Shown one piece after another: positions 11,212-42,185 of a stretch of 64,000 nucleotides of DNA. The DNA is from an uncultured Gammaproteobacteria bacterium (GTDB lineage: Bacteria > Pseudomonadota > Gammaproteobacteria > UBA9214). Where the stretch lies: assembly GCA_963712695.1 (NCBI GenBank), contig CAVQJD010000018.1, positions 5,720 through 69,719 on the forward strand, read 5' to 3'. How positions within the stretch are numbered: the first letter of the stretch is position 1; every line of letters starts with the position of its first letter. The position numbers were made by a program, and so were the translations under genes. The notes beneath the pieces were generated by a model. It saw only the letters and a program-made list of their open reading frames with translations. It did no database searches and had not been told where the DNA came from.

Positions 11212-13452
<2,241 letters not shown>

Positions 13453-14646: not shown

Positions 14647-14697
14647 TGTACAAGTATTGTACAAAAAAATTGACAATTACAGGGCTATTGTATAACT
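14647..14697 (+). promoter_or_regulatory. Sigma70-like promoter with phased TnnACA repeats (CarH/LitR-type operator candidate)
   Basis: TGTACA (14647), TGTACA (14658) and TTGACA (14670, the -35) are followed by TGTATAAC (extended -10, about 14689-14696), upstream of the 14844 gene. Confidence 0.6.
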
Positions 14698-14843
14698 TAC
14701 AGACAACTGCCCAACCTGCAATGTGATGAGGCTCCATGCAAACCAGATACCGCGGACTGAAGGAATGCGAGCATGGCCGTATGCCGCGGCTCGGGGTCGT
14801 GCTGGTCAACTGCGACAAACGACTATCCTGGAGGGAGTAAAAC

Positions 14844-16097
14844 ATGAGCGCTACCAGCCAGCATAATCCGGACCAGGACAGGGTGCTCGATAGCCAGGGG
14901 CTGGCATCAGTAACCTTCACCCTGCAATGGTCTGACGGTCGTTTTGAACATGAAGATCAAATGCACGTCGAAAAATTCAGTGTCTGGCGTGAAGCAGAGC
15001 TTCTGCCATCGGCAATCGGTTCGGAGATAATCGGCATGCGTGCCGGGGGATCTGCACTGGCCGCGTTGCCTCCCGGAGCGGCGACGGGCGCATGGAACGC
15101 TGGTCTGGAGATTACCGGAAGTCCCTCTGGATTTGACCGCTCCTACCGCCGTGGACTGCAGGTTGAACCGCGTTACGGACGGTTTTATCCCCGGGGATTT
15201 TTTCACGGTTTCAGGGAAATTGTCCGGGAAGCCGTCGAGCCTGCACGGATTACCGCGCTGGATGAACAGACGATGCGTGTGGATCTGAATCACCCGCTCG
15301 CCCGTTTTCCCCTGAATGTTTCCTGCAAGGTGGATCAGGTGCTGTCTGGTTCGGACTTGCATGGCGGGCGCTGTGTGAGCTCGGTCGACGAGCTTGTGCG
15401 CTATCCAGGCCTTGCTGCACCGGTTTATGACGGTCGTGATACCGATTACGGTGACGGGGCAGTTGGGATGGCGCGCATGGATGAGCGGGATGATGCTGTT
15501 TTTTATGCTCGTCCCCGTATGGTTCAACACCTCGATGAGCGTGCGCTGGCAACAGTCAATGCGCTTTATCGGCGGTTGATTCCCAAAGACGCTGATGTCC
15601 TTGATCTTATGGCAAGTTACGATTCACATCTGCACGGCTGTTCGATGCAAAGCCTGCGCGTGTTCGGCATGAATGCAGATGAACTCCAGGCCAACCGTCC
15701 GGCGACTGAACGGCAGGTGCAGGATCTGAACCAGGAGCAAACACTGCCTTTTGAAAATGCCAGTCTGGATGCGGTCGTCTGCACCGCATCTGTGGAATAC
15801 CTGATCCAGCCGCAAACTGTCATGGCCGAGGTAATGCGGGTGCTGCGCCCGGCTGGAATTTTTGTGCTTACCTTCAGTAACCGCTGGTTCCCCACCAAGG
15901 CCATCCAGGTCTGGGGCGAACTGCATGAGTTCGAGCGCGTGGGTATGGTTACGCAGTGGCTGCAGCAGACAGGCTTTATGGATTTGCATACATTCTCCTC
16001 CCGTGGCTGGCCGCGCCCGCCGGGCGACCCGCATGCCGGCACAGCCGCAATCTCGGACCCCGTCTATGCCGTCTGGGGTTTCAGGTCCGCAGCCTGA
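14844..16097 (+). CDS. FKBP/SlyD-like domain fused to a class I SAM-dependent methyltransferase
   Basis: The N-terminal part ends in VDLNHPLARFPLNVSCKVDQV (FKBP-type DxNHPLAG signature). The C-terminal part has VLDLMASYDSHL...LPFENASLDAVVCTASVEYLIQPQ...LRPAGIFVLTF (Methyltransf_11-like). Confidence 0.7.
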   Translation: MSATSQHNPDQDRVLDSQGLASVTFTLQWSDGRFEHEDQMHVEKFSVWREAELLPSAIGSEIIGMRAGGSALAALPPGAATGAWNAGLEITGSPSGFDRSYRRGLQVEPRYGRFYPRGFFHGFREIVREAVEPARITALDEQTMRVDLNHPLARFPLNVSCKVDQVLSGSDLHGGRCVSSVDELVRYPGLAAPVYDGRDTDYGDGAVGMARMDERDDAVFYARPRMVQHLDERALATVNALYRRLIPKDADVLDLMASYDSHLHGCSMQSLRVFGMNADELQANRPATERQVQDLNQEQTLPFENASLDAVVCTASVEYLIQPQTVMAEVMRVLRPAGIFVLTFSNRWFPTKAIQVWGELHEFERVGMVTQWLQQTGFMDLHTFSSRGWPRPPGDPHAGTAAISDPVYAVWGFRSAA

Positions 16098-16439
16098 CCT
16101 GATGCGACAGGGGTAACTCACACAGCTCCAGCAGCAGGACGCTGCTCGACTCCGTTGCGGTCCCCGATTCCGTACGTTCACGCTGTCAGGATACGAGGCG
16201 CACAACGCGATCAGAATCAAAACAGTAGCTAACGGTTGAAGTACGCAGGGCCGATAGGTGTGATTGGCGAGGGTTACTGTTTCCCGGGCATGCCGCCAGC
16301 GATCATGGATCAGGCATTGCCGGGTCGCGAGCAGCATGCTCGAATGCTCCGCGTATGCAGGCGGGTTGTATCCAGCGGGGTCGTGTGGATACAGTGACTG
16401 GCGCTGATGGAAGCCTGTCTTGTCATTTTAAACGGGTAA

Positions 16440-20656: not shown

Positions 20657-21407
20657 ATCATCCAGCAGACAGGAGCACAGGCCCAGTCTTGCTGCTGATG
20701 CATCGCGGAATTGAATCGATATCACGGGAAGCACGTGCGCCGCAGGTGGCGGGGCTGGTGTCCGTGGTGTGGCGACTCCAGCCGGTTTACAGCGCATCTT
20801 CATTCGCATACTGACTGATCATCATGTGCATTCGCTGCTGCGGATCCTCCATGGCGCAACTCCTTTGTGCCGGCAGGTCTTGAAAGCATGGCGCGCACAC
20901 TGCCGCTGTTGCCCGCGCGTTCACAGCACCTGCACTGCCACCCGTCACCCGCCGCAGGGTCGCCTCCCGCCTGCGGCGGCTGATATCCCCTGCAGGCTCA
21001 GTTCACCGTTACTGTCCGTCCCTGACCAGCGCGCGACATGCCGACATATCAAATATTTATATATATCAATAATATATTAGCTTTATGGCGGTGGTGGTCT
21101 GGTAACACCTGCGGGTTACACCCGTAACGAACCCGTCGCCTGGGTCGCAAATTTCGACATTGGGGGTTGCATTCTTTCAAATTTGGTACTACTGTCCCAA
21201 TTAGAGTGTTAGTGCCGAGTCGGTTTTTTGATTGGCACTGCTCCGTGGTTGATCAGAGCCAAGTTAATTGACTGTTTTTATTTGCGATTGTTATTTCTGT
21301 TAATGCTGGTGCCGCAGCCGGATTTGATATCGGGGTAAGGATTTGCAGGCGCCAGGCGATAGCGTGTGCGACCGGAATTCCGGCTTCTTGATTGTCAGGA
21401 GGGTTAT

Positions 21408-22832
21408 ATGTATATGAATTTATTGAAAAGAATGGTCCTGGTGCTGGCTGCCGGTGTAGTGGTGGCCTGTGGTGGTAGCAGCGGAGGGGGTGACGTGACG
21501 TTATCCGGGATCACGGCATCCGGCACCATCACGGGGTTTGGCAGTATTTTCGTCAACGGTATCGAGTTCGAAACCGGCGCGGCGAATGTCTCTATCGATG
21601 ATAATCCCGGCATTGAAAGTGACTTGCAGCTGGGCATGGTGGTCACCGTGAGCGGTTCGGTCAATTCCGACGGCAGAACAGGAACCGCCACCACGGTGAC
21701 GTTCGATGATGAGGTACAGGGACCGATTGCAACCGTACCGGTCGATCCGACCGGCGATGGCCTGGTGCTGCAGTTCACCGTGCTGGGTGTCACTGTTGTC
21801 GCCGACAGGACCTCGACGGTCTTTGATGACGGTGTGAGCTTTGCAACCCTGGCACAGGGAGATTTTGTCGAGGTGAGCGGTTTCATTGGTCAGGGCGGCC
21901 TGTTGAATGCCACCCGCATCGAAGGCAAGGGCGCGTTTACTCCGGGTATCAGCGAGATCGAGATCAAGGGGCTCGCCAGCAACGTGGTCGGCATAACGTT
22001 CAGCCTCGGAAGCTTTTCGGTCGACACGTCCGGTGCCGATCTGTCCGGTGTTCCGGGTGGCGTGGTTACCACGGGTATGGAGGTCGAGGTGAAGGGAACT
22101 TTGACCGGGACCAGCATCGCGGCCAGCCGTGTCAAACAGGAGGACGACCTGTTCGCTGCCAACGTCGACAAGGTCAGCCTGGAAGGTATCATCACCAGTT
22201 ACGTCAACGACGGTAACTTCCAGATCTCGGGCCAGCAGGTCGACGCCTCCAGTGCGTTGTTCTCGCCCGCGAACCTGGTACTGGCAAACGGTATCGAGGT
22301 CGAGGTGGAAGGTCCGGTCGTCAACGGCGTGCTGGTTGCCATCAAGGCTGAGGCGCGCGGTGGCAACATCAAGATCGCAGCGCGCGTGCTAAGTGTCGGC
22401 CAGAATTCCCTGACCCTGCAATTCAACGGTGGTACGGTCGATGTCGTGGTCGACAGCCAGACCAGCCTGCGCGACGATCTCGGGATTTTCGATCCCTATG
22501 CCCTGGGTAATGTTGTTGCTACGGATTTCCTGGAGATCAGCGGGTCGATCAACGGCAACGGCATTATCACTGCTGAAGAGATCCGTCGTGACAATGCCAG
22601 TGACGACATCCTGCAAGGCCCGGCGGACAGCTGTATCGGTACCACCCTGGCGGTGCTGGGTATCGACTTTACCCTGCAGGACGGTTTAACGACCTACCAG
22701 GACCAGCTCGACAACCCGATTGCAAATGCAGCGAATTTCTGTGCGGCAGTCAATGCGAGCAGCCTGTTCGTGAAAGTGAGGGACGACCTGAGTCCGAACG
22801 GTATCGCGGATGAGGCCGAACTCGAGAACTAG
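21408..22832 (+). CDS. Lipoprotein with repeated DUF5666-like beta domains
   Basis: An AGGAGG RBS precedes the start. The lipobox is LAAGVVVAC|GG. ITGFGSIFVNGIEFETGAANVSIDD...LGMVVTVSGS recurs as repeated V/G/T-rich modules. Confidence 0.7.
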   Translation: MYMNLLKRMVLVLAAGVVVACGGSSGGGDVTLSGITASGTITGFGSIFVNGIEFETGAANVSIDDNPGIESDLQLGMVVTVSGSVNSDGRTGTATTVTFDDEVQGPIATVPVDPTGDGLVLQFTVLGVTVVADRTSTVFDDGVSFATLAQGDFVEVSGFIGQGGLLNATRIEGKGAFTPGISEIEIKGLASNVVGITFSLGSFSVDTSGADLSGVPGGVVTTGMEVEVKGTLTGTSIAASRVKQEDDLFAANVDKVSLEGIITSYVNDGNFQISGQQVDASSALFSPANLVLANGIEVEVEGPVVNGVLVAIKAEARGGNIKIAARVLSVGQNSLTLQFNGGTVDVVVDSQTSLRDDLGIFDPYALGNVVATDFLEISGSINGNGIITAEEIRRDNASDDILQGPADSCIGTTLAVLGIDFTLQDGLTTYQDQLDNPIANAANFCAAVNASSLFVKVRDDLSPNGIADEAELEN

Positions 22833-22858
22833 GACGTTACTGCTTGGAATCCCCTTTC

Positions 22859-22883
22859 GGCGCCTTCGGGCGCCGCTTTTTTT
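22859..22883 (+). terminator. Rho-independent terminator
   Basis: GGCGCC-TTCG-GGCGCC is followed by GCTTTTTTT. Confidence 0.85.
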
Positions 22884-23228
22884 GTGGGCCGCGGGCCCGC
22901 GACCGCGGAAACCTCGCCAATTGCGCTATGTGTCAAGGGTAGTGCCGCGCTGCCATAATGTATAAGGCCTTCGGTTTTGCCGCCAATCACACGAGTCTGT
23001 GTAAGACCGGTCTCTGCGACTCGAGCTACTGTCGGGTGGCTTCTGTGACGGCGCGCGACCATGCATCGGGGTACAAAACATACCATCGTAATGAATTCCT
23101 TGAACAAGTGACTAACACAGGACAATTCACTCAAGCAGCATATGCTGGTGAATGAAAAATTTCCTGCTGGTCCTGGCCAACATGCCTTTGGGGTCTGCAG
23201 CGCTGCGTGGCGTTTTGGCGAGTGCGCG

Positions 23229-23459
23229 CTAGTTGATGGAACCGGTGTTCGGATTGTCCGCCATGTCGTCATAGATCCGCTTGAGGCCGGACATGCCATC
23301 CGAACTGTGTAGGGGAATTGCGAGATATTCCTGCTTGTTGGCCTCGGTCTCGAAGTAGATTTTCAGCGCGCTGCTGCCGTTTCCTTCGATGACATACGGT
23401 GCATTTTCCGTATCAGTGACATCTTTCATTGAAATCGGGTCAAGTGTCGATGTGATCAT
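23229..23459 (-). CDS. Small hypothetical protein (76 aa), last gene of the lipid-modification operon
   Basis: An AAAGGAGAA RBS lies upstream of ATG 23459 (MITSTLDPISMKDVTD...). The longer listed ORF 23229..23765 overlaps the cfa gene and was trimmed. Confidence 0.55.
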   Translation of the reverse strand: MITSTLDPISMKDVTDTENAPYVIEGNGSSALKIYFETEANKQEYLAIPLHSSDGMSGLKRIYDDMADNPNTGSIN

Positions 23460-23490
23460 GGCGTTCTCCTTTGTGTGACAGTGTATTTTG

Positions 23491-24771
23491 TTAATAATCG
23501 GTGGCTGCAAGTGGCTGGCGCCGGCAGTGCGGCTTGACGAGCAGCAGCTGAACGGTGCCGATAGCCTGCTGGCGAAATCCGCCCTCGCAATAGGCAAGAT
23601 AATATTCCCACATGCGAATGAAACGTTCCGGATAGCCGAGCTGGCGTACTTTTTCGATGTTGGCAAAAAAACGGTTGCGCCAGTGACGCAGGGTGGTGGC
23701 GTAGTGCGGGCCGATGTCATGCAGATGAAAGATGCGCATATCGGTATTGCGTGCGACCGCGTCACTCAGTACGGCGTTGGAAGGCAGGCAGCCGCCGGGA
23801 AAGATATAACGCTGGATGAAATCAATGGAATTTTTTGCAGCCTGGTAGCGCTGGTCGGCGATGGTGATGGACTGCAGCAGCATCATGCCGTCCTCTTTGA
23901 GCAGCTCACTGCATTTTCTGAAATAGGTGTCGAAGTAACGGTGGCCGATGGCCTCGATCATTTCTATGGACACCAGCTTGTCGTACCTGCCGTTCAGTTC
24001 CCGGTAGTCGTCGAACAGCAGTTCGATACGGTCTTCCAGGTCCGCGTGCCGTATCCTCTCCATGGCATAGTCATGCTGTTGTTTTGATATGGTGGTAGTT
24101 GTGACGCGGCAGCCGTAGTGTTTTGCCGCATACAGGGCGAAGCCTCCCCAGCCTGTGCCGATTTCCAGCACATGATCAGTAGGTTTGAGTTGCAGCTTCT
24201 GGCAAATGGCTTCCAGCTTGGCCTCCGAGGCTTCCTGCAGTGTAGTCTGCGGACGATGAAAAATTCCGCTGGAGTACATCATGGTCTTGTCCAGGAACAG
24301 TTCGAACAGCTCGTTGCCCAGGTCATAGTGTGCTTCGATATTGCGGCGGCTGCCTTGCAGTGTATTGCGTTGCATGAAACGCAGCAGTAACTGTGCCGGC
24401 TTTGCCAGCCAGCGCATGCCGGGACCGATTTTTCCGATATGCTGGCGGTTGCGGAGAAACAGTTCGACCATCAGGGTCAGGTCATCGCACAGCCAGTAGC
24501 CGTTCATGTAGGCTTCGCCGGCTCCAAGAGCACCGTGCGTCAGAACCCTGGTATACAAGGCGGCATTGGTGACTGTGACAGTGACCGGCTTCGGGAAGGT
24601 ATGGTCCTTGTTGCCGAAGACATACTGCTCGTCGCCGTCATTTACAATGAGTTGTCCATGACGCAGGTTCTTGAGCCGGCTCAGTATGACCCGCCTGGCG
24701 TGGTTGCTGAATATGCCGGTATCGCGTTCCTGCAGGGCAGACTTGTCTATACACATTGCAGCAGATTTCAT
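23491..24771 (-). CDS. cfa: Cyclopropane-fatty-acyl-phospholipid synthase family methyltransferase
   Basis: [55 protein letters not shown] and [14 protein letters not shown] are present. ATG 24771 overlaps the upstream stop (ATGA). Confidence 0.88.
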
Positions 24772-25547
24772 GGTTTTCTCACCGGATTCGGTGCCTCCTG
24801 TCTGTCGGGGTGAGGAAAAAACGGAACTCGCTTCAGCCAGAGACACAGCGCCTGGTAGTAAATGGCTGTAACGATCTTGACCGTCATGAAGGGGTAGCGG
24901 ATCAGCACGCTGGCAAGGCTGATGCCATTGATGGGGCGTTGCCGCAGCGCCAGTGTGGCATCAAACATCCTTTCACCATGCTGGTAGTTCTTCATATGAA
25001 CGGCGAGTTTTTCATCCGGCAGCGTGAACCGCCAGTCATAATCCATGTCCATGCCCATGAAGGGCGATACATGGAAGCGCTTGTCATGCAGAAAGCGTTT
25101 GGTATTTGCGTCACCCCGGTTACGTGATTCGGGCAGTACGTAGCAGTATTGCTGCCCCCAGGGCGTGTTGTTGACTTCTGCGACAATGACCTCGAGTTTT
25201 TCGCCGGTTTCGTCAAAACAGTAATAGAAACTGACCGGATTGAAGCCATGACCAAAATAGCGCAGGTTGGTCAGCAGCCGCACCGGACCGCTGAGTTTGA
25301 TGCCGGTTTCATCTTCAACGAGTCGGCGCACCGCTGTTGCCAGGTCGACAGATCTGTCGCCGAGATGATCCTCGCGCCTGAACCGCGCCAGGGCAGGTCG
25401 CGTGGCCGACCAGAGCCAGCGTTTGCGGAACAGGGTCGGCAGTTCGTCAAGATCGATATACAGCATGAACAACGCATATTGAAATGCGTGCTGCGTTGGC
25501 AGATAGCGGCGGTGGCTAACCTGTCCGACGTAGAGGGAGCTGTGCAT
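24768..25547 (-). CDS. DUF1365 family protein
   Basis: [36 protein letters not shown] is the typical DUF1365 N-terminus. The start was set at ATG 25547. Confidence 0.8.
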
Positions 25548-26793
25548 GATTGCTGTATTCCTTGAAGTCCTGCAGGGCATCGAGCGCGCTGACAACTCCA
25601 TCCTCGTGAAAACCGCTGCGCCAGTATGCGCCACAATACCAGGTGCGGCACTGGCCGTTGATGGCCTGCCTGCGCCGCTGGGCTGCAACACCCTGTGCAG
25701 TGTATACCGGGTGGTAATATTGCATGCGGCGGATGATCTTGTCGGGATCGATATGCCGGGTGTCGTTGAGTGTCACGCAGAAGGTCGATGCGGCGCTCAA
25801 CCCCTGCAGGATATTCATGTTGTAGGTGACCGAGACCCGCGTGCTGTCTGCATCCCTGCGCAGGTAATTCCACGCCGCCCACGCACGTCTGCTGGCGGGC
25901 AGCAGGGAGGTGTCAGTATGCAGTACGACGTCATTCTGCTGGTAGGGGATTGCACCAAGTACCTCCTGTTCGGGTCCGGTGGGGTCGGATAGCATGGCCA
26001 GCGCCTGATCGCTGTGGGCGGCGATGAACAGGCCGTCGAAATGTTCGCAATTTCCGGCAGAGGTGCGCAGTTCTACATGCGTGGGTCGTCTCTTCACCGA
26101 AACGACGGCTTCGTTGAGGCGGATCCTGTCCCTGAACGGCGCGATGAGCCGGGTGACATACTCGCGGGAGCCACCCTTGATTACCCGCCACTGCGGCCGG
26201 TTTCTGATGTTCAGCAAGCCGTGGTTGGCAAAAAAACGCACGAAGTAACAGGCCGGGAATTCCAGCATCTGTTGCGGATCTGTCGACCAGATGGCTGCGC
26301 CCATGGGTATGACGTAATTATCGATGAACAGGCGGCCGTATTTCATGTCCGTCAAATAACGGCCCAGGGTGAGCGACTCGTCATGACTGGCCAGCAATTC
26401 CGTGGCTTCACGGTTGAAGCGCAGGATGTCGCGAATCATGCTGTGAAAACGCGGGCTGAAAAGGTTGCGCCGCTGGGCAAATAATCCGTTCAGGGACGAA
26501 CCGTTGTATTCGATGCCGCTGGTTTCGCAGCGGCTGCTGAAGCTCATCGCCGTAGGCCGGGATTCCACGCCAAGCGCGTCGAGCAGGGCGATAAAATTCG
26601 GGTAGGTCCAGTCGTTATAGACGATGAATCCGGTATCGATGGCATATTGCCTGCCAGCATGAACGATATCATGGGTATGAGTGTGTCCGCCGGCATGGTC
26701 TGCGGATTCGAACACGGTGATATCGTGGTCTCTGCACAGATGCCAGGCGGCAACGTTGCCGGCTATGCCTGTTCCTATCACTGCAATCTTCAC
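25516..26793 (-). CDS. NAD(P)/FAD-dependent oxidoreductase (amine-oxidase/desaturase-like)
   Basis: [19 protein letters not shown] is a dinucleotide-binding fold. 425 aa, and the start overlaps the upstream stop. Confidence 0.85.
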
Positions 26794-27359
26794 AGCTCCA
26801 GTCCTCCGGTCTGCCCGCCACGCTGCGGTACGGTTTGTATTTTCGAAATATCGTAACCCTGTCTGGAAATTTCACCGAGAATGGCCAGGTAATTCGCTTC
26901 CGGAATCGAGGGCGTGCGCGCCATGATCCAGACAAAATCCCGTTTGTTACGGCCTATCACCGTCTGGGTATAGTCAGCATTCAGATAGATCACCCTGTAG
27001 TCCGCCTTGATCGGCCAGATGAACTGCATGCGCCAGATAGCATTCGACGGGTCATCGGTGACAAAGCCGGTCGGTTTATACGTCTTGAGCGGTCCATCGA
27101 AGGCGCCCTGGTTGAAACGGAATGTCGTGGCTACCCGTTTGCTGCCGACCAGTTCGTAGGATTCAATGGCATTGTGCGCCTTGCGTTCGATGAAGGTGGG
27201 TATGTTGGCGATCACATACCAGTCGCCCATGAAGCGTTCCAGGTCGAGCTGCGCAACGGTGCGCACGGGTGAATAAGTGCTGCAGGCCGCCAGTGTCATC
27301 ACAGGCAGGAGCCCTAGAAGGCGGGCCAGTCTGGCTATGTTCGAATTATTCTGCGACAT
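26790..27359 (-). CDS. Bacterial lipocalin (Blc-like) lipoprotein
   Basis: The lipobox is MTLAAC. DLERFMGDWYVIANIPTFIE and YVWIMARTP-like (FVWIMARTPSIPE) lipocalin signatures are present. Confidence 0.85.
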   Translation of the reverse strand: MSQNNSNIARLARLLGLLPVMTLAACSTYSPVRTVAQLDLERFMGDWYVIANIPTFIERKAHNAIESYELVGSKRVATTFRFNQGAFDGPLKTYKPTGFVTDDPSNAIWRMQFIWPIKADYRVIYLNADYTQTVIGRNKRDFVWIMARTPSIPEANYLAILGEISRQGYDISKIQTVPQRGGQTGGLEL

Positions 27360-28008
27360 AGCGCAGCCTGCTGCCATTGGTGGTCGTGGAGTTCAGGGCG
27401 AGCCATTCGTTGTCACTCGAGTACCAGACTTCGATATCAAGATCGTTCGCTGTGAGACGGTACTGGTGTGCCTGGATGACCGTTTCCCCGAGAGCAAGGG
27501 TATTTTCACCGAGGTAATTCACTTCGACATCCAGGTATTCACCGGTCTGTGAATTTAGCAATCTGCTGCGTTCGAGGAAGGATTTGTCCCAATAGGCAAA
27601 CGTGCTGATACAGGAGGGCAGGGTACGATCACCCGAGTTCGATGTGATCACAAAGCCAGTGTCACTGACCATGCCCGCTACCTGAAACTGCTTGCCGTTC
27701 TGGTCGGTATTTGACGAAATTTCCTGCAGGCACTTGCTGTTCCAGTGTTCGAGGCTGTTATGCCGGTAGCGGTAGAAAGGTATCTTCAGAAAAGTCACAT
27801 CAAACCTGGCTTCGGAGGCAAGTCGTTGCAAGCCTCCATCCTGTGCCAGTGTGAACTGGTGGTAGCCAATTTCCTTGTCATCCAGGTATACCCGGAAGCG
27901 CCATTCCTGTTCAGTCGTTGCGCTGGAAATGCAGGGCCGCAGCAGTAACAGGCCGCATACAGTACCTGCAGACAGATTACGAATCCTGTTGGCTATTTGG
28001 TTACGCAT
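27346..28008 (-). CDS. Exported protein of unknown function
   Basis: 220-aa ORF with a signal-like N-terminus (GTVCGLLLLRPCISSA), embedded in the operon. Confidence 0.6.
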   Translation of the reverse strand: MRNQIANRIRNLSAGTVCGLLLLRPCISSATTEQEWRFRVYLDDKEIGYHQFTLAQDGGLQRLASEARFDVTFLKIPFYRYRHNSLEHWNSKCLQEISSNTDQNGKQFQVAGMVSDTGFVITSNSGDRTLPSCISTFAYWDKSFLERSRLLNSQTGEYLDVEVNYLGENTLALGETVIQAHQYRLTANDLDIEVWYSSDNEWLALNSTTTNGSRLRYVAE

Positions 28009-28024
28009 GGTGCATCACCCGCCA

Positions 28025-28800
28025 CTAGGCGGCCCGCGGTGGGCCTGGAATGAAAGCATTGGTGCGCGCCATGTATTCGCGGTAGGCTGGACGTCGCTCG
28101 GCAATATCTTTTTCCAGGAGTGCCACGCCCGAAACGCGCAGCAGGAGCAAGGTCATCAGCAATGGCGAGATTACGGACCACCAGCCGCCGGCGGCAACTG
28201 CAAACAGGTAGAATCCCCACCAGACACAGCATTCCCCGAAGTAGTTCGGGTGTCTCGTATAGCGCCACAAGCCTTTGTCCATGACCTTGCCGCTGTTGTC
28301 CGGGAGGCCTTGAATGCAGCCAGCTGGGCATCTGCGATACTCTCGAAGAGAATGCCGAAGATCACCAGCGCAGCCGCGAGCAGGTCAATAAGGTTCAGCG
28401 GGATACTGCCGGTGGTAGCGCTGAGCAGCGGCAGGGAGATGATCCAGGCCAGCGTTCCCTGCAACAGGAAAACCAGACCCAGACTCTTGAGTGCGAAATT
28501 CGGTGAGTGCTTGCGCCGCATGGCCTGGTAACGGGCATCCTCGGGTTCTCCCAGATTGCGCCAGGTGATGTAGGCGGACAGCCGTATTGCCCATACAGCG
28601 ACCAGGGCCAGTACGATCACGCCGCGCTGTGTTTCAAACTCGTACATCAGAAAGTACGTCGAGCCGAGCGCGAGAAACGTCAGTGACCAGAGGCTGTCGA
28701 CAATGCTCACGTCCCGCTTGCGCAGGCTCACCAGCCACGCCAGCGTAGTCAGCAGCAGAGCGACCAGCAGGCCGGAGAAATATATATCAGTCACAAGCAC
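28025..28800 (-). pseudogene. DUF1295 (steroid 5-alpha-reductase-like) membrane protein, frameshifted near 28302-28304
   Basis: ORF 28171..28800 ends ...FESIADAQLAAFKAS and then runs off-frame. ORF 28025..28282 starts MDKGLWRYTRHPNYFGE. Restoring one C (tcccgg to tccccgg) gives KASPDNSGKVMDKGLWRY. Confidence 0.8.
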
Positions 28801-29896
28801 GGGTGCTCCACTCCATCACGACCGGATTGGACGGCACTGGCCTGAAGCCGACTGGCCTTTCCGAACAGGTAATGACCAACGTACCATTGCTGCCCGTTGT
28901 CAAAGGCAAACAGTTCGGCGCAGGCCATGAAAAACATGCGCCAGCGCATCCACCACTGCCGGGCGCTCTGTTCGCCGTAAGTCTGCTCCAGGAGGGGCCA
29001 GATGGCTGCCCTGTTGTCGTCCATGTTGCGCAACCAGCTATTAGCGGTCTTTTCATAATGCATGCCGTGCCACTGCCAGTGTTGCAGGATGCCAAGGTGA
29101 TCCTGAAACAACAGCGGCAGATCGTTGCTGGGCATCATGCCCCCGCTGAAGAAGTATCTCGCTCATCCAGTCGCTGGCATTATGCACTTCGAAGACATAG
29201 GGCGTATTGCGGATGCAGAAGATGTGCATGAAGAACTGGCCATCCGGCTTGAGCCAGCTGCTGATGCGCTCGAACAGTGCCCGATAGTTGCGCATGTGTT
29301 CGAACATCTCGACCGACACAATGCGGTCGTATGAGATTCCGGCTGCGTAATCGTTCATGTCGCAGGTGAGCACATCGAATGTTGGCAAGCTGCTCCGAAG
29401 CAGCCATTTTCATGATGTGGTGGCGTTGGGAGGAGGAATTGGAGACGGCGGTGATGTGGCTGTGCGGGTAGTGGCGGGCCATCCACAGTGTCAGCGAACC
29501 CCAGCCGCAACCCAGTTCCAGAATGTCCATGCCGTCCTGCAGGCCGGCATGCTCGCAGGTTATACGCAGTGCTTCACATTCGGCCGTATCGAGATCGCTG
29601 ACGCCGTTATCCCAGTAACAGCAACTGTACTTGCGGGACTTGCCAAGCACGTGGGTGAAAAAATCAGCCGGCACCTCATAGTGCTGTTCGTTGGCCAGGT
29701 GTGGCAGAGGCGCCAGGGGGGACATATCCATCATCCGGATGAAGCCGGACTTGCTGGCGGCGTTGGCTTCGCAGTCATCACCGGTGAGTGTGGCAAGCCG
29801 CCGCTTGAGCAGGCGTCTGATGCCGTGACGAATTACCGAATCGGGTACCAGGCCCTGCTCCGTCCAGTCAATGGCTCGTGCTGTGGTGTTTTCCAT
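28791..29896 (-). pseudogene. Second CFA-synthase-like SAM methyltransferase, with two frame switches (about 29389 and about 29157)
   Basis: Three ORF pieces join as ...ILELGCGWGSLTLWMARHYPHSHITAVSNSSSQRHHIMKMAASEQ|LPTFDVLTCDMNDY...FEVHNASDWMSE|YFFSGGMMPSNDLPLLFQ...QQWYVGHYLF. An AGGAG RBS lies before ATG 29896. Confidence 0.8.
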
Positions 29897-29920
29897 GCTG
29901 CCTGGCTCCTGTCCTTGCCG

Positions 29921-29969
29921 GTTTCATGTAATGTACAAAACTTATACATTCAACTCGATAAACTGTCAA
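29921..29969 (-). promoter_or_regulatory. Promoter of the lipid-modification operon with phased TnnACA repeats
   Basis: On the minus strand: TTGACA (29969-29964), a 17-nt spacer, TATAAG (29946-29941), then TGTATA (29948-43), TGTACA (29937-32) and TGAAAC (29926-21) at 11-bp spacing. Confidence 0.65.
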
Positions 29970-30074
29970 GTCCTGTCAGTCACGAAAATGAGCCAGCGAA
30001 CGGGAAAACCGTATAAACAATATTAAAAACAGTAAAATATAAACTATTTTAGCATCTCGACACGCCCTTAATAA

Positions 30075-30113
30075 GGAACAAAACTTGTACATTAAGCCCA
30101 AGTATCGTATAAG
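30075..30113 (+). promoter_or_regulatory. Promoter of the gpx operon containing a TGTACA element
   Basis: TTGTAC (30085-90), a 17-nt spacer and TATAAG (30108-13). GGAACA (30075) and TGTACA (30086) are 11 bp apart. The third repeat is poor. Confidence 0.45.
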
Positions 30114-30139
30114 ATAAGCTCACCAAGAGGGTGCCGTTC

Positions 30140-30694
30140 ATGTATCCGACCAATGCCGGTTTTTTGAAGATTGCAGCAGTCCTGTGGAGCCTGTCTGCGG
30201 GGGTGGCTGCCGCGGCGTGTCCCGACTCTCTGAATCACTTTAAGCGCCCCTTGTCCGGCCAGGATCCTGTCCACCTGTGCGATGTCATGCATGGCAAGGT
30301 GGTGCTGGTCGTCAACACGGCCAGCAAATGCGCCTACACGCCGCAGTACGACGGACTCGAAAAGCTCTATCAGCATTACCGTGCGCGCGGGCTGGTAGTG
30401 GTCGGTTTTCCGTCCAATGATTTTGCCGGTCAGGAACCGGGCACGGAAGCGCAGATCCAGAACTTCTGCCGCCTGACCTACGGTGTCGAGTTTCCGATGT
30501 TCGAAAAAATCCACGTCAAGGGAGCAGACGTAGATCCCTTCTATCAGTACCTCGCCGGCGCAACGGGCGAAGCGCCACGCTGGAATTTTCACAAATACCT
30601 TCTGGACCGGGATGGACGGGTGATCGCCAGCTTCCCGAGCCAGGTAACGCCCGATGATCCGCGCCTGATCGACAGGATCGAGGAGTTGTTATGA
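30140..30694 (+). CDS. Glutathione peroxidase with signal peptide
   Basis: GKVVLVVNTASKCAYTPQYDGLEKLY, VVGFPSNDFAGQEPG and WNFHKYLLDRDG are present. The N-terminal AAVLWSLSAGVAAAA is signal-like. The start could also be GTG 30131. Confidence 0.88.
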   Translation: MYPTNAGFLKIAAVLWSLSAGVAAAACPDSLNHFKRPLSGQDPVHLCDVMHGKVVLVVNTASKCAYTPQYDGLEKLYQHYRARGLVVVGFPSNDFAGQEPGTEAQIQNFCRLTYGVEFPMFEKIHVKGADVDPFYQYLAGATGEAPRWNFHKYLLDRDGRVIASFPSQVTPDDPRLIDRIEELL

Positions 30695-30895
30695 ATCACC
30701 CGATCATCGATTCACCTGTTGCCACGCGCAGAACGGGGTCGCGTGCCGCATTTGTCTGCCAGCGTAATGCTGCCAGGCTGGGCTATACCGGACTGATTCC
30801 GTCTGTTGCCGGTCGCTTGTATGGCGGCTTGCCGCGCTCGCAACCCTGTGCAAGATGGTTGCATTTTTTCCGCAGTTTTGAGTGAGGTTATCCAT

Positions 30896-31864
30896 ATGAA
30901 GAAAGAAATTACGGTAGTACCGGCCGGCATCAGGGTTGGTGTCAGTTCATGCCTGCTGGGAAAGGAAGTCCGTTTCGACGGTGGCCACAAGCGCAACCGG
31001 TTCGTGACCGAAGCGCTGGCGGACTATTTCGAGCTCGTGCCTTTCTGCCCGGAAGTTGCGATCGGAATGGGTATACCGCGGCAGCCAATCCGACTGGTGG
31101 GTAACCAGGACAGTCCGGAAGCTGTCGGGGTGAAGAATCCTGACCTGAATGTCACCCGGCCGCTCAGGGAGTACGGGCGAAAGGTTGCCGGCACGCTCGA
31201 CGGGCTATGCGGGTTCATCTTCAAAAAAGACTCGCCCAGTTGCGGCATGACACGAGTCAAGGTCTATAGCAGCCAGGGTATGGCTGTGCGGTCAGGTGCC
31301 GGATTGTTTGCCCGTGAAATCATGCGTGCTGATCCGTTGTTACCGGTTGAGGAGGAGGGGCGCCTTAACGATGCCGGATTGTGCGACAGTTTCATCACCC
31401 GCGTGTATGTCTATGCCCGCTGGAAAGCCCTGCGGCAGGCCGGCTTGAGCAAATCAGGTCTGGTTGAATTTCATGCCAGTCACAAGTTTCTCGTCATGGC
31501 GCACAGCAGCGCTGCATACAGGCAGCTGGGTCGGATGCTCTCCGACCTCGGCGGCGTGAACCTGCATGCAACAGCCGACTCGTATATCAGTCTGTTGCTT
31601 GAGACGCTGAAACGTCCCGCCACGCGCAAGCAGCATACCAACGTCCTGCAGCATCTGCTCGGTTATCTGAAAAATGATCTCGAATCACCGCGCCGCGCCG
31701 ACCTCGCCGGTGCTATCGATGCCTATCGCCGCGGCGATTTCCCGCTGGTGGTGCCCGTCAGGCTGCTGCAGCATTACTTCAGCTTGCATCTGCATCCGTA
31801 CATTAACCGGCAGGTGTACCTGAACCCCTACCCGCAGTCACTGCAGCTCAGAAACGTTTTGTGA
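30896..31864 (+). CDS. ybgA: YbgA-like protein (DUF523 + DUF1722)
   Basis: MKKEITVVPAGIRVGVSSCLLGKEVRFDGGHKRN (DUF523) is followed by a C-terminal helical DUF1722-like half. The start was trimmed to ATG 30896. Confidence 0.7.
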   Translation: MKKEITVVPAGIRVGVSSCLLGKEVRFDGGHKRNRFVTEALADYFELVPFCPEVAIGMGIPRQPIRLVGNQDSPEAVGVKNPDLNVTRPLREYGRKVAGTLDGLCGFIFKKDSPSCGMTRVKVYSSQGMAVRSGAGLFAREIMRADPLLPVEEEGRLNDAGLCDSFITRVYVYARWKALRQAGLSKSGLVEFHASHKFLVMAHSSAAYRQLGRMLSDLGGVNLHATADSYISLLLETLKRPATRKQHTNVLQHLLGYLKNDLESPRRADLAGAIDAYRRGDFPLVVPVRLLQHYFSLHLHPYINRQVYLNPYPQSLQLRNVL

Positions 31865-31875
31865 GATGAGCCCTG

Positions 31876-32631
31876 ATGGCCGCTGAATCCAGCTTTGGTG
31901 TCGTGATCGTGGGAGATGAAATACTCTCGGGTAAACGCAATGACAGGCACCTTCCGCATGTAATTGACACGCTGGCCGCGCGTGGTATCGAGGTCGCATG
32001 GTCGAGGATCGTGAGTGACAAACGCAGCCGGCTGGTGCACGAGCTCAGGCAGACCCAGCAGGATTCCGTGCCCGTGCTGTGCTTCGGTGGCATTGGTGCG
32101 ACGCCCGATGACCAGACCCGCCAGGCAGCCGGCGAGGCTTTTGGCTGGGCGTTGGCCAGGCACCCCGGCGTACTGGATATCATCGAGCGGCGCTTCGGGA
32201 GCGAGGCCTGGCCGATACGGGTGCGGATGGCGGATTTACCTGACGGCTGCCTGTTGATACCGCACCCCTCAGGCGGGATTCCCGGTTTTACCCTGTACAA
32301 CCATCACTTCTTTCCCGGGTTTCCAGAGCTAGCCTGGCCCATGCTGGACTGGGTGCTGGATACCTATTACCCGTCATGCGCCAGTCCGCGGCAGGAAAAG
32401 TCGGTCAGGGTCATTGCGGTGGCCGAATCGGAGCTGGTGGGGCTGATGGAAGCCCTGTCCAGGCGCCATCCCGGGGCACGATTATTCAGTCTGCCGCACA
32501 TGGGGATGATTAATTCCGTGGAAATCGGGTTTCGTGGTGAGCACCACAGTATCGAACCCGCCTTCTCGGAGCTTGTCGTTGCCCTGGATCGGCGTGCGCT
32601 GTGCTATGAACTGCCAGGCGGAGCAGTGTAA
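31876..32631 (+). CDS. CinA-like/MoCF-biosynthesis (molybdopterin-binding) domain protein
   Basis: FGVVIVGDEILSGKRNDRHLPHVIDTLAARGIEV...CFGGIGATPDDQTRQA is present. Confidence 0.7.
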   Translation: MAAESSFGVVIVGDEILSGKRNDRHLPHVIDTLAARGIEVAWSRIVSDKRSRLVHELRQTQQDSVPVLCFGGIGATPDDQTRQAAGEAFGWALARHPGVLDIIERRFGSEAWPIRVRMADLPDGCLLIPHPSGGIPGFTLYNHHFFPGFPELAWPMLDWVLDTYYPSCASPRQEKSVRVIAVAESELVGLMEALSRRHPGARLFSLPHMGMINSVEIGFRGEHHSIEPAFSELVVALDRRALCYELPGGAV

Positions 32632-32660
32632 AACGGGGCAATCCGGAAGACTGCCGTTTT
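32631..32660. terminator. Possible bidirectional terminator hairpin between convergent genes
   Basis: AAACGGGGCA...TGCCGTTTT forms an imperfect stem flanked by A/T runs. Confidence 0.4.
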
Positions 32661-32715
32661 AAGCTCTCTTGTCTGGTATCTGTCCCAGGTTTGACTGCGG
32701 CTGGATCAGTGGCGG

Positions 32716-33657
32716 TTACCCGGGTCGGTCTGTCTTCAGTTGCTTGCTGAGCAGTCTGAGTCCGGTGCCGATCGCTTCACCCAGGCAGATCGCGCCTGCG
32801 GCCTCGATTTTCTCCTGATGCCTGGCGGTGATCCTGCCGCCAACGAAGACCGGAACCGGGCTCTTGTTCACCAGCGCGGCCAATTCGTTTTCGAGTGCGC
32901 CGCGAACGGGCCGGGCCGATCCCGACAGGACGACGCCGGCACAGGTCCTCGCTCGCATGACACCGGGCAACTGGTCAAGTGGCATATTGGATCCGAGGAC
33001 CAGGACCCGGAAACCAAAATTCACGGCCGCGAGGGCAAACAGCAGCAGGCCAATTTCATGGAAATCACCTGGCAGGCAGGCGAGCAGCAGCATGGGCCCG
33101 TTGCTGCGCTGATTCATGTGGTGGATGCGGGTCCCCAGCTTGTTGCGCAGATAGACAGTAAAGAAATGTTCCTCGGCAATGCCGGTTTCGCGCTCATTCC
33201 AGCGTTCACCGAATATACGCAACAAGGGCGAAACCAGACGTTGAATGACTACATCGACCGGATACAGTGACAGGACGTCGTTATAAAGGGTGTCCAGCGC
33301 ATGCTCGTCGAAATGTTCCACGGCCTGGAGCATTTTGCGCTGATAGGCGCGCCAGACCTCCCCGGGATCTGTCACAGCTGCAGCCTGCTCCTGGCCCGGC
33401 GCCTGCTCCAGCACGGGTTTAACCTGGCTGATCGAGATGCCCTGTTCGAGTAACTCGAGGACATGTCTGATGTGTTCGACATCCTCCTCGGTATATAAAC
33501 GGTGTCCTTTGGGTGTGCGTTGCGGGGTAATCAGGTTGTAACGACGCTCCCATGCGCGCAGGGTTACCGGGTTAACGCCGGTCAGATCCGCGACGGTGCG
33601 AATGGGCAGCAGGCTCCCGGGGGCAATGGTTTTTTCTGCGGGTTGTGATTGCGGCAT
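32716..33657 (-). CDS. MerR-family, cobalamin-binding photoreceptor regulator (CarH/LitR type)
   Basis: The MerR HTH is IRTVADLTGVNPVTLRAWERRYNLITPQRTPKGHRLYTEEDV. The Wx9EH motif is WNERETGIAEEH and the B12-binding DxHxxG is GDFHEIG. The listed 450-aa ORF was trimmed to ATG 33657 (MPQSQPAEK). Confidence 0.85.
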   Translation of the reverse strand: MPQSQPAEKTIAPGSLLPIRTVADLTGVNPVTLRAWERRYNLITPQRTPKGHRLYTEEDVEHIRHVLELLEQGISISQVKPVLEQAPGQEQAAAVTDPGEVWRAYQRKMLQAVEHFDEHALDTLYNDVLSLYPVDVVIQRLVSPLLRIFGERWNERETGIAEEHFFTVYLRNKLGTRIHHMNQRSNGPMLLLACLPGDFHEIGLLLFALAAVNFGFRVLVLGSNMPLDQLPGVMRARTCAGVVLSGSARPVRGALENELAALVNKSPVPVFVGGRITARHQEKIEAAGAICLGEAIGTGLRLLSKQLKTDRPG

Positions 33658-33676
33658 AGGGATTACTCTCGCTATT

Positions 33677-33704
33677 TGTACAACAATTGTACTGCCTTGG
33701 TGAA
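33677..33704 (-). promoter_or_regulatory. Candidate autoregulatory operator upstream of the photoreceptor gene
   Basis: On the minus strand, TTCACC (33704-699), AGTACA (33693-88) and TGTACA (33682-77) are spaced at 11 bp, ending 20 nt upstream of the start codon. Confidence 0.55.
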
Positions 33705-34074
33705 GGTTTTGTCTGCTCCATGCATGCCACGGGGCATCCGCTGCGCATGGGGCTCCCGCGCATGGAAAACGTTGCTGGTCCAGGTCTGGACAGGGTTTTG
33801 CAGACGCAGATCTAACGCGAGTGCCTGCATTCGCCATTGCGGAATATTCACTGGCGGTGTTCCTTGCAGTGAGGCTGGCCAGATCGTGAATGACTCCGGT
33901 TACTGCGTCTCTGCGCCGGTAAAATCCGCAAATCCCGGCTCCCAGGCTTTGCATATCCGCCGGGATCAGAGTTGCGGCAGGAAGCTGGGGGCGTGTAACG
34001 CAAGGCTGTGGTTCAGGTTTGTTGATACGAAGGCGGTTGCCGTCTAATCGCTGTCCGAGCCGCCGCAACGAAGG

Positions 34075-34227
34075 CTACATCCGCCAGGGTTTACCGTTGC
34101 AGTACCCGTAATTGCCGCAGTGACGGGTGCAGCCACGACATGGCAGTCTTTCGTTGACTTTGTTTTGCCGTAATCCAGCGAGAGCCTGGACGGTGTATTT
34201 CAGCGGTAAAGGTGAGCCTGCATTCAT
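34075..34227 (-). CDS. Small Cys-rich ORF (50 aa from ATG 34227; the longer ORF runs to 34344)
   Basis: The C-terminus is LPCRGCTRHCGNYGYCNGKPWRM (CxxCxxxCxxxxxC). The RBS is weak. It lies downstream of the 54-aa ORF on the same strand. Confidence 0.3.
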   Translation of the reverse strand: MNAGSPLPLKYTVQALAGLRQNKVNERLPCRGCTRHCGNYGYCNGKPWRM

Positions 34228-34347
34228 GATGCTCAACTTCAGAAAAAAAGCCGGGATGGTGGGACATCCATCCCGGACGTCCATCCCCGAAAACTGCCGA
34301 CCCGCCTGCTGGCGGATCGGCAGAGATGGAATGGATAAAATCATTGC

Positions 34348-34512
34348 CTACCCTTCATCAATACCACTGTCGATGGGGTTGTTGATGATTTCGTGCAGAT
34401 TGCTGCCGGGTACCACGGAGTGGAGTATTTCGATGTTTTCGCGTTCGGCCGCACGCATGGCCTCATCGTAGAATTGTCCGGTTTTGCGTATTTGCAGTTC
34501 ATAGGCGCTCAT
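34348..34512 (-). CDS. Small hypothetical protein (54 aa)
   Basis: An AGGAGA RBS lies 6 nt upstream of ATG 34512. The product is MSAYELQIRKTGQFYDEAMRAAERENIEILHSVVPGSNLHEIINNPIDSGIDEG. Confidence 0.45.
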   Translation of the reverse strand: MSAYELQIRKTGQFYDEAMRAAERENIEILHSVVPGSNLHEIINNPIDSGIDEG

Positions 34513-34620
34513 GGCTGTTCTCCTGTGTGCAGGTTCAAGTGATACGGGTTGTTGCACCCGTGTGACGGGATTCCATTAATCTGATGCCGATTCAGTTCCG
34601 CAGCGTGTGCACGTGACGGT

Positions 34621-34665
34621 AAAGATAGTTGCCCCGGCTTTTGGCTAGGGGGGTGCCGGGGCAAC
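34621..34665 (-). terminator. Terminator/attenuator-like hairpin inside a leader of about 290 nt
   Basis: On the minus strand, GTTGCCCCGGC-(16 nt)-GCCGGGGCAAC is followed by TATCTTT. It lies between the promoter at 34848 and the ORF at 34512. Confidence 0.4.
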
Positions 34666-34814
34666 CAGTGCGGAGAGTCGTTTGCTGCCCTGCAGAGTCT
34701 GCTGTGTGTGCAAGCGCGCTGGTGCTGCATGGTTGTTGTGCGCTCAGTCTGCAACAGCGGATTTTCGTATGCCGGGCTCATGCTTTACAAATCCATTACA
34801 TTGGTTAAATATTG

Positions 34815-34848
34815 TGTACAAATATACTACAAAATTTGTACATGTCAA
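34815..34848 (-). promoter_or_regulatory. Promoter with three 11-bp-phased TnnACA repeats (best operator candidate)
   Basis: On the minus strand: TTGACA (34848-43), then TGTACA (34842-37), TGTAGT (34831-26) and TGTACA (34820-15). The -10 TATATT (34826-21) is embedded in the repeats. Confidence 0.65.
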
Positions 34849-35042
34849 GCATTATTTGTCGATAGTTGCCATCTTTCGGGATTTGCTGGAAATTTCCCGA
34901 CGGCCCGGGTGTGCGGACTGCCCGGCACTATCGATGCGGGCCGATCTTTGCCCAGATTGCTGGCCTGGTTGCGTGATATATGCTCTCCGATGCCTGTGAT
35001 CGGCGGTCAGCTTATGAAGGCCATGAGCCACCCGCTGGCTGC

Positions 35043-35093
35043 CGTACAATAATTATACAAAAGCTTGACAATTAGTGTTATTAGGCTTATACA
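35043..35093 (+). promoter_or_regulatory. Divergent promoter with three 11-bp-phased TnnACA repeats
   Basis: CGTACA (35043), TATACA (35054) and TTGACA (35065, the -35) are followed by a 17-nt spacer and TATACA (35088, the -10). Confidence 0.6.
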
Positions 35094-35134: not shown

Positions 35135-35263
35135 ATGTCTAACTACACACAGCACAGGGCACAGGCTCAGGATCTGGTGCTCGCGAAAGTAGTATTCGGT
35201 TTTCTGCTGACACCGCTGGTCATCATGTTCGCCATCGCCGGTGCGATGTTGGCGGTTGCCTGA
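35135..35263 (+). CDS. Small single-TM peptide (42 aa)
   Basis: A GGAG RBS lies 9 nt upstream of ATG 35135. The product is MSNYTQHRAQAQDLVLAKVVFGFLLTPLVIMFAIAGAMLAVA. Confidence 0.35.
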   Translation: MSNYTQHRAQAQDLVLAKVVFGFLLTPLVIMFAIAGAMLAVA

Positions 35264-35544
35264 ATCACGTCCTGGCTGGAGAGTGCGCAAGCCACACACT
35301 CACAAGCCCCTTCTTGAGTGCCGCCCCCGGGTAACTACCGGTTAACCCGAGCGGGGCGGCACGGTGTTTTGTGCCGAGCCCATCACACGCCACTGGCAAC
35401 CACCTGCAAATACATTCCGATTGGTTGTGCAATTAACCAACGCTGTCCTGTGACCCGGCATCAGGCCCGGATCGCGGCGCAAGTCATTGTTTCGCTGGGC
35501 TACCTTGTGCTGCCGGGCGGAATGGGTCTATGCTGTGAGTCAGT

Positions 35545-35937: not shown

Positions 35938-36083
35938 GCCGTTCCGGCACGACGGGTCGCCGATCCGCTTCGTGGTGTGTGTCATGCAAATGGTTCTGGA
36001 GAGTCGCCATGTATTACTACCGGAGTTCTGTCCTGCATTCATGTTCTGGCGCTGAACAGTTTCGCTATCATCTGCGGGTGTTG

Positions 36084-42154: not shown

Positions 42155-42185
42155 AATAATTGTGGGTCGTACCGATGGGTGATAG

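Follow-up and report, generated by a model that had tools for sequence, protein, structure and literature searches.

A predicted CarH-type regulon with phased 11-bp operators at six promoters of an uncultured gammaproteobacterium

Class I CarH regulators of Thermus and Bacillus bind DNA in the dark as a tetramer carrying adenosylcobalamin (AdoCbl), at operators of tandem 11-bp direct repeats, nnnnTnnACAn, that lie over the -35 or -10 element, number three in Thermus and four in Bacillus, and tolerate degenerate repeats, written dr (PMC9304148). Their defining motifs are RxWERRY, Wx9EH and D/ExHx2G-x41-SxT/V-x22-27-GG; Wx9EH contacts the upper axial adenosyl group and tells CarH from CarA, and the His of the Rossmann loop is the lower axial ligand (PMC9304148). 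Class II LitR regulators of Pseudomonas keep the four-helix bundle, lack the Rossmann B12 module, sense light via a partner short-LOV protein and use the operator T(G/A)TACA-N12-TGTA(C/T)A; the light-induced LitR regulon of Pseudomonas contains phrB, ufaM and genes of unknown function (PMC9758184). UfaD, UfaO and UfaM are, respectively, the flavin adenine dinucleotide (FAD) desaturase, the DUF1365 oxygenase and the cyclopropane fatty acid (CFA)-synthase-like S-adenosylmethionine (SAM) methylase of furan-fatty-acid synthesis (PMC7380195). The present work concerns a 64-kb stretch of an uncultured gammaproteobacterial genome (contig CAVQJD010000018.1, positions 5,720 to 69,719), referred to as the window, which contains a carH/litR gene and six promoters bearing phased TnnACA-type hexamers (Table 1).

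All six phased sites of the initial annotation, which had read them as a light regulon of the 32716-33657 product, are present where it had placed them, and two irregularities that it mentioned, the 11- and 12-bp steps at 14647 and the poor third repeat at 30075, were both seen. These repeats are proposed to be the operators of the adjacent class I CarH/LitR, an AdoCbl photoreceptor repressor, with a probability of roughly 0.8. The link between the regulon and this product is predicted from the class I motifs of the protein, the CarH-type operators and the conservation among orthologues. In the dark, AdoCbl-bound CarH would oligomerise (as a tetramer in Thermus) and the oligomer would lay its MerR-type domains on one DNA face along an array of three or four 11-bp repeats in tandem, of the form nnnnTnnACAn and mostly T(G/A)TACAA here. 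At six sigma70-type promoters such repeats lie over the -35, the -10 or the transcription start, where they would keep RNA polymerase out; light would cleave the Co-C bond, the oligomer would dissociate and the promoters would fire. The predicted derepressed set, which would guard against photo-oxidative and UVA (long-wave ultraviolet) damage, comprises a lipid operon of furan-fatty-acid type, gpx, rudS, a cinA-like gene, a hemH-derived methyltransferase unit, two small proteins, an orphan transcript and carH itself, whose own operator would give negative autoregulation. AdoCbl binding, oligomeric state, repression and light response are thus predicted for this CarH, and light induction of the regulon is considered somewhat less probable than the operator assignment.

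The explanation that AT-rich promoter DNA contains the phased hexamers by chance is almost certainly wrong. TTGACA and TATA-type promoter elements carry ACA or TA themselves, and at two sites (29921 and 30075) there are just two good repeats plus a degenerate one. However, TACA-N7-TACA has eight copies in the window and all eight are inside the claimed promoter sites, whereas TACA pairs at any other step from 5 to 26 bp number between zero and two each, with a single pair at the 18-bp step. For promoters rich in AT, shuffling dinucleotides globally makes a poor null, and it was replaced by shuffling inside 50-bp blocks, which preserves AT-rich islands, and by a comparison of AT-rich segments. 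The block shuffles give a mean of 0.90 +/- 0.97 copies with a maximum of 5, and none of 300 reaches 8. Among 34 AT-rich segments of the window, the four with claimed sites hold nine phased ACA pairs and the remaining 30 hold two; the phased pairs are therefore not equally common in the other AT-rich segments of the window, a comparison on which, taken over promoters of the genome, the initial annotation had made its regulon depend. The full triplet ACA-N8-ACA-N8-ACA matches twice on both strands of the window, as TGTACA-N5-ACTACA-N5-TGTACA (34815-34842) and CGTACA-N5-TATACA-N5-TTGACA (35043-35070). An operator model derived from the literature, and not built from the window (TnnACA three times at 11-bp steps, with a minimum of 10 matches out of 12), has nine hits in the window against 2.1 +/- 1.7 in the null. 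Eight of them fall in the claimed region: five of the six listed sites account for seven, and the adjacent extra pair at 34784 for one. The only hit outside the regulon, at 52542-52569 on the minus strand, is in AT-rich DNA upstream of sufB, is without a TGTACA-type core and probably reflects chance. The sites are also kept across orthologues whose flanks have diverged, and the shuffles, the segment comparison and the orthologue alignment together refute a chance origin.

The orthologous promoters were obtained from loci fetched with CarH orthologues of 58-80% identity in gammaproteobacterial metagenome-assembled genomes (MAGs), two of them labelled Ectothiorhodospiraceae; further carH genes came with loci of the methyltransferase and 54-aa-protein orthologues. 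Conservation of the sites in such promoters, a check that had been proposed, was found at the carH, lipid-operon and gpx promoters. Wherever the DNA upstream of carH could be read, in 17 loci, an operator is present there; the measured protein identities are 58-80%. When ten carH upstream regions are aligned, the sole conserved block is CTnACA...GTACAAT-N4-T(G/A)TACA, a DR-dr-DR-DR array across the -35, the -10 and the start, in which the CTnACA -35 element is 22 bp upstream of the GTACAAT part. The lipid-operon and gpx sites are conserved as identical 14-15-mers between divergent genes in syntenic loci. L003, whose carH is 61% identical, has an exact copy of the lipid-operon site ACAAAACTTATACA in the orthologous intergenic region; L005 has an exact copy of the gpx site ACAAAACTTGTACAT, with one more repeat upstream, and L003 and L004 retain part of it. 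The lipid operon is syntenic in L003, and the gpx-rudS-cinA-like order in L003, L004, L005 and L059.

The 313-aa regulator shows an N-terminal MerR_1 domain (Pfam, 3.4e-18, residues 18-85) in which RxWERRY is present as LRAWERRY, and a four-helix bundle (Pfam B12-binding_2, 5.1e-10) in which Wx9EH is intact as W153-x9-E163-H164, aligned to Thermus thermophilus CarH. The Rossmann motif, counted by hand in the sequence and aligned to 5c8d, reads D198-F-H200-E-I-G203, 41 residues, S245-G-S247, 25 residues and G273-G274, so that S stands where the SxT/V element expects T/V. The best PDB matches are T. thermophilus CarH/LitR, 5c8d and 3whp (E about 1e-29, residues 16-276), and the best NCBIfam family is TransRegCarH (NF052513). 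Judging from these matches, the product is a divergent class I CarH/LitR and not a close orthologue of the curated NCBIfam seed set; because it has a Rossmann module, which class II lacks (PMC9758184), it is not a class II protein. With the class I CarH of T. thermophilus, Bacillus megaterium and Myxococcales it shares the domain architecture, RxWERRY, Wx9EH and the His-loop B12 motif, as well as operators in which three or four TnnACA repeats at 11-bp steps cover the -35 or -10, degenerate repeats included, and, as predicted here, autoregulation. It differs from them in the absence of carotenoid genes from the regulon, which instead contains the lipid operon, gpx-rudS-cinA-like, the methyltransferase and the small proteins; in the Asn after the Trp of Wx9EH and the SxS in place of SxT/V; in the extended near-palindromic repeat core T(G/A)TACAA; and in its uncultured gammaproteobacterial host.

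At carH, the four hexamers read CAGACA / TTCACC / AGTACA / TGTACA on the gene strand, every step being 11 bp, and span the -35 (CAGACA), the -10 (TACAAT, 33691-33696) and the likely transcription start of a promoter-like match in the scan. The tm42 site, upstream of a short transcript with a 42-codon open reading frame (ORF), has the best promoter/operator of the set: its third repeat, TTGACA, is itself the -35, followed by a 17-bp spacer and TATACA (35088) as the -10. The small-protein promoter, with a -35 TTGACA (34848-34843), a 16-bp spacer and a -10 TATATT (34826-34821), scores 11/12, the best promoter-like match in the region, and its repeats run from just past the -35, across the -10 and up to the start. 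An extra pair downstream of this promoter, TTTACA 34784 and ATTACA 34795 (TTTACA-N5-ATTACA, an 11-bp step), absent from the initial annotation, is 20 bp off the main 34815 array and hence out of register. The lipid-operon promoter shows, on the gene strand, a -35 TTGACA (29969-29964), a 17-bp spacer and a -10 TATAAG (29946-29941), and its TATACA (29943) and TGTACA (29932) repeats sit over the -10 and the start region. The gpx promoter is TTGTAC-17-TATAAG; TGTACA (30086) overlaps the -35 (30085), and the -10 is at 30108. In the methyltransferase unit, TGTATA (14689) overlaps the -10 TATAAC (14691-14696). Overlap of the repeats with sigma70-like promoters was thus seen at the six sites, as had been claimed.

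Several features weigh against the operator assignment. The 14647 promoter, with its spacer of 15 bp, does not pass the consensus promoter scan. One operator step (14658 to 14670) is 12 bp rather than 11; it runs through an A7 run (14663-14669), and an indel error in this homopolymer would turn 11 into 12. To these are added the two-repeat sites at 29921 and 30075. The TransRegCarH score is 137 bits, far under the equivalog cut-off of 400; the Pfam B12-binding (Rossmann) score is 27.4 bits, below the gathering cut-off of 32.1; and after the Trp of Wx9EH comes Asn, where Thermus CarH has the His responsible for its bis-His photoproduct. Genes for B12 synthesis or uptake were not seen in the window. 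Finally, the promoters of methyltransferase orthologues in L018, L022-L024, L026 and L031-L035 show a strongly conserved T(G/A)TACA-N13-TGTACA-N7-TGTATAAC, about 40-230 bp upstream of the gene; its steps around a TTGAC(A/T) -35 are 19 and 13 bp instead of 11, a spacing that resembles the N12 of Pseudomonas class II LitR. These steps indicate that the operator grammar is plastic, looser than a strict 11-bp array.

The same 19-bp steps, near the class II spacing, bear on the possibility that the boxes are bound by a different regulator of the LitR family encoded outside the window, or are shared between two regulators. Such a regulator could be a B12-independent paralogue, or one working with a LOV protein or a singlet-oxygen pathway. 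The T(G/A)TACA hexamer is common to the class II LitRs of Pseudomonas, and L059 has beside its carH a second paralogue (6604-7767, 387 aa) with MerR and B12-binding_2 only, which is not in the 64-kb window. The class II regulators (PplR1-3 of P. putida and PmlR1-2 of P. mendocina) also share with this locus the gammaproteobacterial host, repression, here predicted, at sites over the -35 and a regulon in which a ufaM-type lipid cluster and RudS/ybgA occur with genes of unknown function. Against this, a single LitR-type regulator is found among the window ORFs scanned, with no second one and no LOV/PAS protein; the carH promoter bears the conserved site in every orthologue examined; and the spacing in the window is mainly N5 (11-bp step), the CarH signature, whereas class II regulators have N12 (18-bp step) and no Rossmann B12 module. 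As a further difference, phrB, folE and cryB are not present in this window. A different LitR as the binding protein is clearly unlikely, and the adjacent CarH remains the preferred regulator.

Table 1. Features of the predicted CarH regulon in the 64-kb window (window positions).
Feature	Positions	Strand	Description
carH/litR gene, 313-aa product	32716..33657	-	MerR-type DNA-binding domain, B12-binding four-helix bundle and Rossmann module
carH autoregulatory operator and promoter (predicted)	33677..33715	-	Window-strand hexamers TGTACA 33677, TGTACT 33688, GGTGAA 33699, TGTCTG 33710
Methyltransferase-unit operator and promoter (predicted)	14647..14696	+	TGTACA 14647, TGTACA 14658, TTGACA 14670 (= -35)
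Lipid-operon operator and promoter (predicted)	29921..29969	-	GTTTCA 29921 (weak), TGTACA 29932, TATACA 29943; steps 11, 11
gpx-operon operator and promoter (predicted)	30075..30113	+	GGAACA 30075, TGTACA 30086, CCCAAG 30097 (degenerate third repeat)
Small-protein-unit operator and promoter (predicted)	34784..34848	-	TGTACA 34815, ACTACA 34826, TGTACA 34837; exact 11-bp steps
Short-transcript (tm42) operator and promoter (predicted)	35043..35093	+	CGTACA 35043, TATACA 35054, TTGACA 35065 (-35), N5 gaps
Lipid-modification operon, furan-fatty-acid type, seven genes	23491..29896	-	Pfam, synteny
gpx (glutathione peroxidase), rudS (TudS+DUF1722), cinA-like (MoCF_biosynth) operon	30131..32631	+	Pfam
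Methyltransferase, 417 aa	14844..16097	+	Beta-rich N-terminal domain and class I SAM methyltransferase domain (Pfam Methyltransf_11)
hemH N-terminus relic, 34-codon ORF starting MQTRYRGLKECEHGRMPRLGVVLVNC	14736..14840	+	In methyltransferase leader; comparison with relatives
small54, 54-aa acidic protein	34348..34512	-	N-terminal helix, invariant C-terminal tail LHEIINNPIDSGIDEG
Terminator-like hairpin followed by T-run	34251..34276	-	Between small54 and Cys-rich gene; 9 pairs, 7 G-C, then CTTTTTTTCT
Cys-rich peptide, 50 aa	34075..34227	-	Between small54 and carH; invariant RLPCRGC-x3-C-x5-C-x-G-x-PWR
tm42, 42-codon hydrophobic ORF	35135..35263	+	Called by gene callers on other assemblies

The lipid operon contains, in order, genes encoding a CMAS-like methyltransferase, DUF1295 and DUF6134 proteins, a lipocalin, an FAD amine-oxidase-like protein, a DUF1365 protein and a CFA-synthase-like protein. 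The initial annotation had counted eight genes; seven were recognised and two of these are split by frameshifts. The last three are adjacent (Pfam Amino_oxidase 8e-16, DUF1365 6.8e-86 and CMAS 8.7e-90) and correspond, by domain, to UfaD, UfaO and UfaM. In the DUF1295 gene (28025-28800, minus strand) Pfam profile positions 1-154 are in one frame and 156-235 in another, and the first CMAS-like gene (28791-29896, minus strand) covers profile positions 11-113 only, its L003 orthologue going on in another frame. The putA gene (44759-47666, plus strand), outside the operon, is also split into two overlapping ORFs; the three split genes suggest assembly indel errors, or pseudogenes. A 156-aa ORF at 22829-23299, with no homologues in related loci and of unnatural composition, was treated as non-coding. 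In the gpx operon, the gene that had been called ybgA encodes TudS fused to DUF1722, and this domain pair makes it RudS, a tRNA 4-thiouridine desulfidase; RudS reduces UVA-induced growth delay and frequently occurs in operons that respond to light (PMC11417400).

The coherence that the initial annotation had seen in its targets holds, since their functions match the light-induced LitR regulons and the singlet-oxygen regulons (PMC9758184, PMC11417400, PMC7380195). The SigmaE-ChrR regulon of Rhodobacter sphaeroides (RSP1087-1091, ufaM) shows the same kind of lipid cluster, with UfaD, UfaO and CFA-synthase-like methyltransferases, and the same link to photo-oxidative protection. Control there is by an extracytoplasmic function (ECF) sigma/anti-sigma pair that senses singlet oxygen, not by a repressor and operator; no such pair or promoter type was seen here, and a scan of about 45 window ORFs gave no domain of a sigma or anti-sigma factor. 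These targets also bear on a reading in which CarH chiefly senses the availability of cobalamin and not light, the regulon being off with AdoCbl and on without it. CarH binds DNA only with AdoCbl, so that a lack of B12 would derepress it too, and the lineage (Ectothiorhodospiraceae-like MAGs, sediment metagenomes) may meet little light. The targets, however, are photoprotective and not related to B12 (furan-fatty-acid-type operon, RudS, Gpx), and a DNA photolyase gene is beside carH in L063 (7534-8985) and L064 (2174-3625), although not in the 64-kb window; moreover, the Wx9EH motif, by which photoreceptor function is defined, is intact. A mainly cobalamin-sensing role is very improbable, and a light-responsive CarH is retained as the explanation.

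The methyltransferase unit and the small ORFs had been put forward as new members of such a regulon. For the methyltransferase and the 54-aa protein, small54, this gains independent support, as their orthologues lie within about 5 kb of carH with the same hexamers; for the 42-aa transmembrane (TM) peptide, the promoter is supported but the coding status is not. Seven metagenomic loci have a methyltransferase orthologue within about 5 kb of a carH orthologue (71-75% identity), and in four of them (L018, L021, L023, L032) a promoter with T(G/A)TACA / TGTACA / TGTATAAC is directly upstream of the methyltransferase gene. In L004 the orthologue and gpx are divergent, and TATACA-N5-TATACA lies in front of the orthologue. 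Elsewhere among the relatives, the CarH-type promoter of the methyltransferase unit drives a complete hemH with the methyltransferase gene after it, divergent from a cbiX-like chelatase gene; the T(G/A)TACA / TGTACA / TGTATAAC promoter precedes hemH in L016, and the methyltransferase is directly behind hemH in L014, L016 and L034. The full-length hemH of L016 starts MNTRYRGLREFEHGRMPRLGIVLVNLGTPE (Pfam Ferrochelatase 8.5e-110), and the relic in the methyltransferase leader of the window corresponds to the hemH N-terminus. This comparison places the methyltransferase unit as derived from a hemH operon, in which the methyltransferase would ancestrally have been co-transcribed with ferrochelatase, and the hemH context hints at a tetrapyrrole or photosensitiser link for the enzyme.

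The AlphaFold2 (AF2) model of the methyltransferase has a mean predicted local distance difference test score (pLDDT) of 83, and the fold of its C-terminal domain matches class I SAM methyltransferases. The FKBP-methyltransferase fusion of the initial annotation thus stands in its methyltransferase half; the beta-rich N-terminal domain is weakly suggested to be FKBP/SlpA-like by the JGI (Joint Genome Institute) names of two homologues, an FkpB profile match at E of about 0.3 and an NCBIfam FKBP match at E 0.018. Pfam finds nothing in the N-terminal 249 residues, even at E <= 1, a sequence search of the PDB returned methyltransferases only and no FKBP, and Foldseek with the whole model was swamped by methyltransferase hits.

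The small54 gene, in the minus-strand unit upstream of carH, has 44 homologue clusters with 76-100% identity, nearly all of 54 aa, plus one weak match of 30 aa, and is beside carH-type genes in independent contigs. Its AF2 model is of low confidence (pLDDT 61) except for helix 3-24. The homologue clusters, the invariant tail and the position beside carH-type genes mark small54 as a real gene. Its leader from the predicted CarH-controlled promoter (34513-34812, minus strand) is unusually long, about 300 nt, with no Rfam match; in the relative L018 it is about 65 nt, and a small hairpin just 5' of the ribosome-binding site is common to relatives. A 90-aa ORF at 34509-34781 has no homologues in related loci and an unnatural composition, and was treated as non-coding.

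Ten other loci have the motif of the Cys-rich peptide close to small54 and carH. It also recurs in proteins of 45-75 aa, in about 100 representative clusters whose named members, where looked up, are all annotated as hypothetical; neither Pfam nor NCBIfam has a model for it. In relatives the peptide has its own CarH-type promoter, such as TTGACA-N5-TATACA-N5-TTACAC in L026, and the metagenomic protein P0174 is a fusion of the small54 N-terminus to the Cys motif. In this gammaproteobacterial lineage, small54, whose invariant tail is disordered, and the Cys-rich peptide are always beside carH and under CarH-type operators. They could be accessory parts of the photoreceptor circuit, comparable to CarS of Myxococcus, for instance an anti-repressor or a metal/redox-sensing modulator; this is a rather unlikely proposal, which if true would define a new CarH partner module.

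The tm42 ORF has no homologue but itself among 5.8 billion proteins, and none in the fetched loci. Downstream of it, at about 35318-35375, come a GC-rich hairpin (GCCGCCCCG...CGGGGCGGC) and T-rich DNA. The unit may specify a short RNA of about 270 nt instead of a protein, and its coding status is uncertain. An Rfam scan of the whole window found tRNA-Phe alone; the long leaders match no RNA family, the cobalamin riboswitch included. Stress-related neighbours without a CarH-type site are KatG catalase-peroxidase, a large Lhr helicase, and a CusCBA-like efflux system with a heavy-metal P-type ATPase (11227-13452, 6383-10771 and 35979-44659, respectively, all on the plus strand).

The regulatory system and its operator are already known; what is new is the host lineage, a regulon without carotenoid genes that a B12-type CarH appears to run directly, the operator variants and the carH-linked pair of small proteins, the two unannotated small proteins being the freshest element. 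The B12-dependent CarH switch, studied almost only for carotenoid genes, is extended to uncultured gammaproteobacteria related to Ectothiorhodospiraceae, where CarH appears to control directly a protective set, made up of a furan-fatty-acid-type lipid operon, RudS and glutathione peroxidase, that is run by B12-independent LitRs in Pseudomonas and by sigmaE-ChrR in Rhodobacter. The six natural operator variants, which differ in repeat number, in orientation and in position from the -35 to past the start, could aid the study of operator plasticity and the design of optogenetic promoters, and the two unannotated small-protein families and the FKBP-like methyltransferase become candidates for a light-related function.

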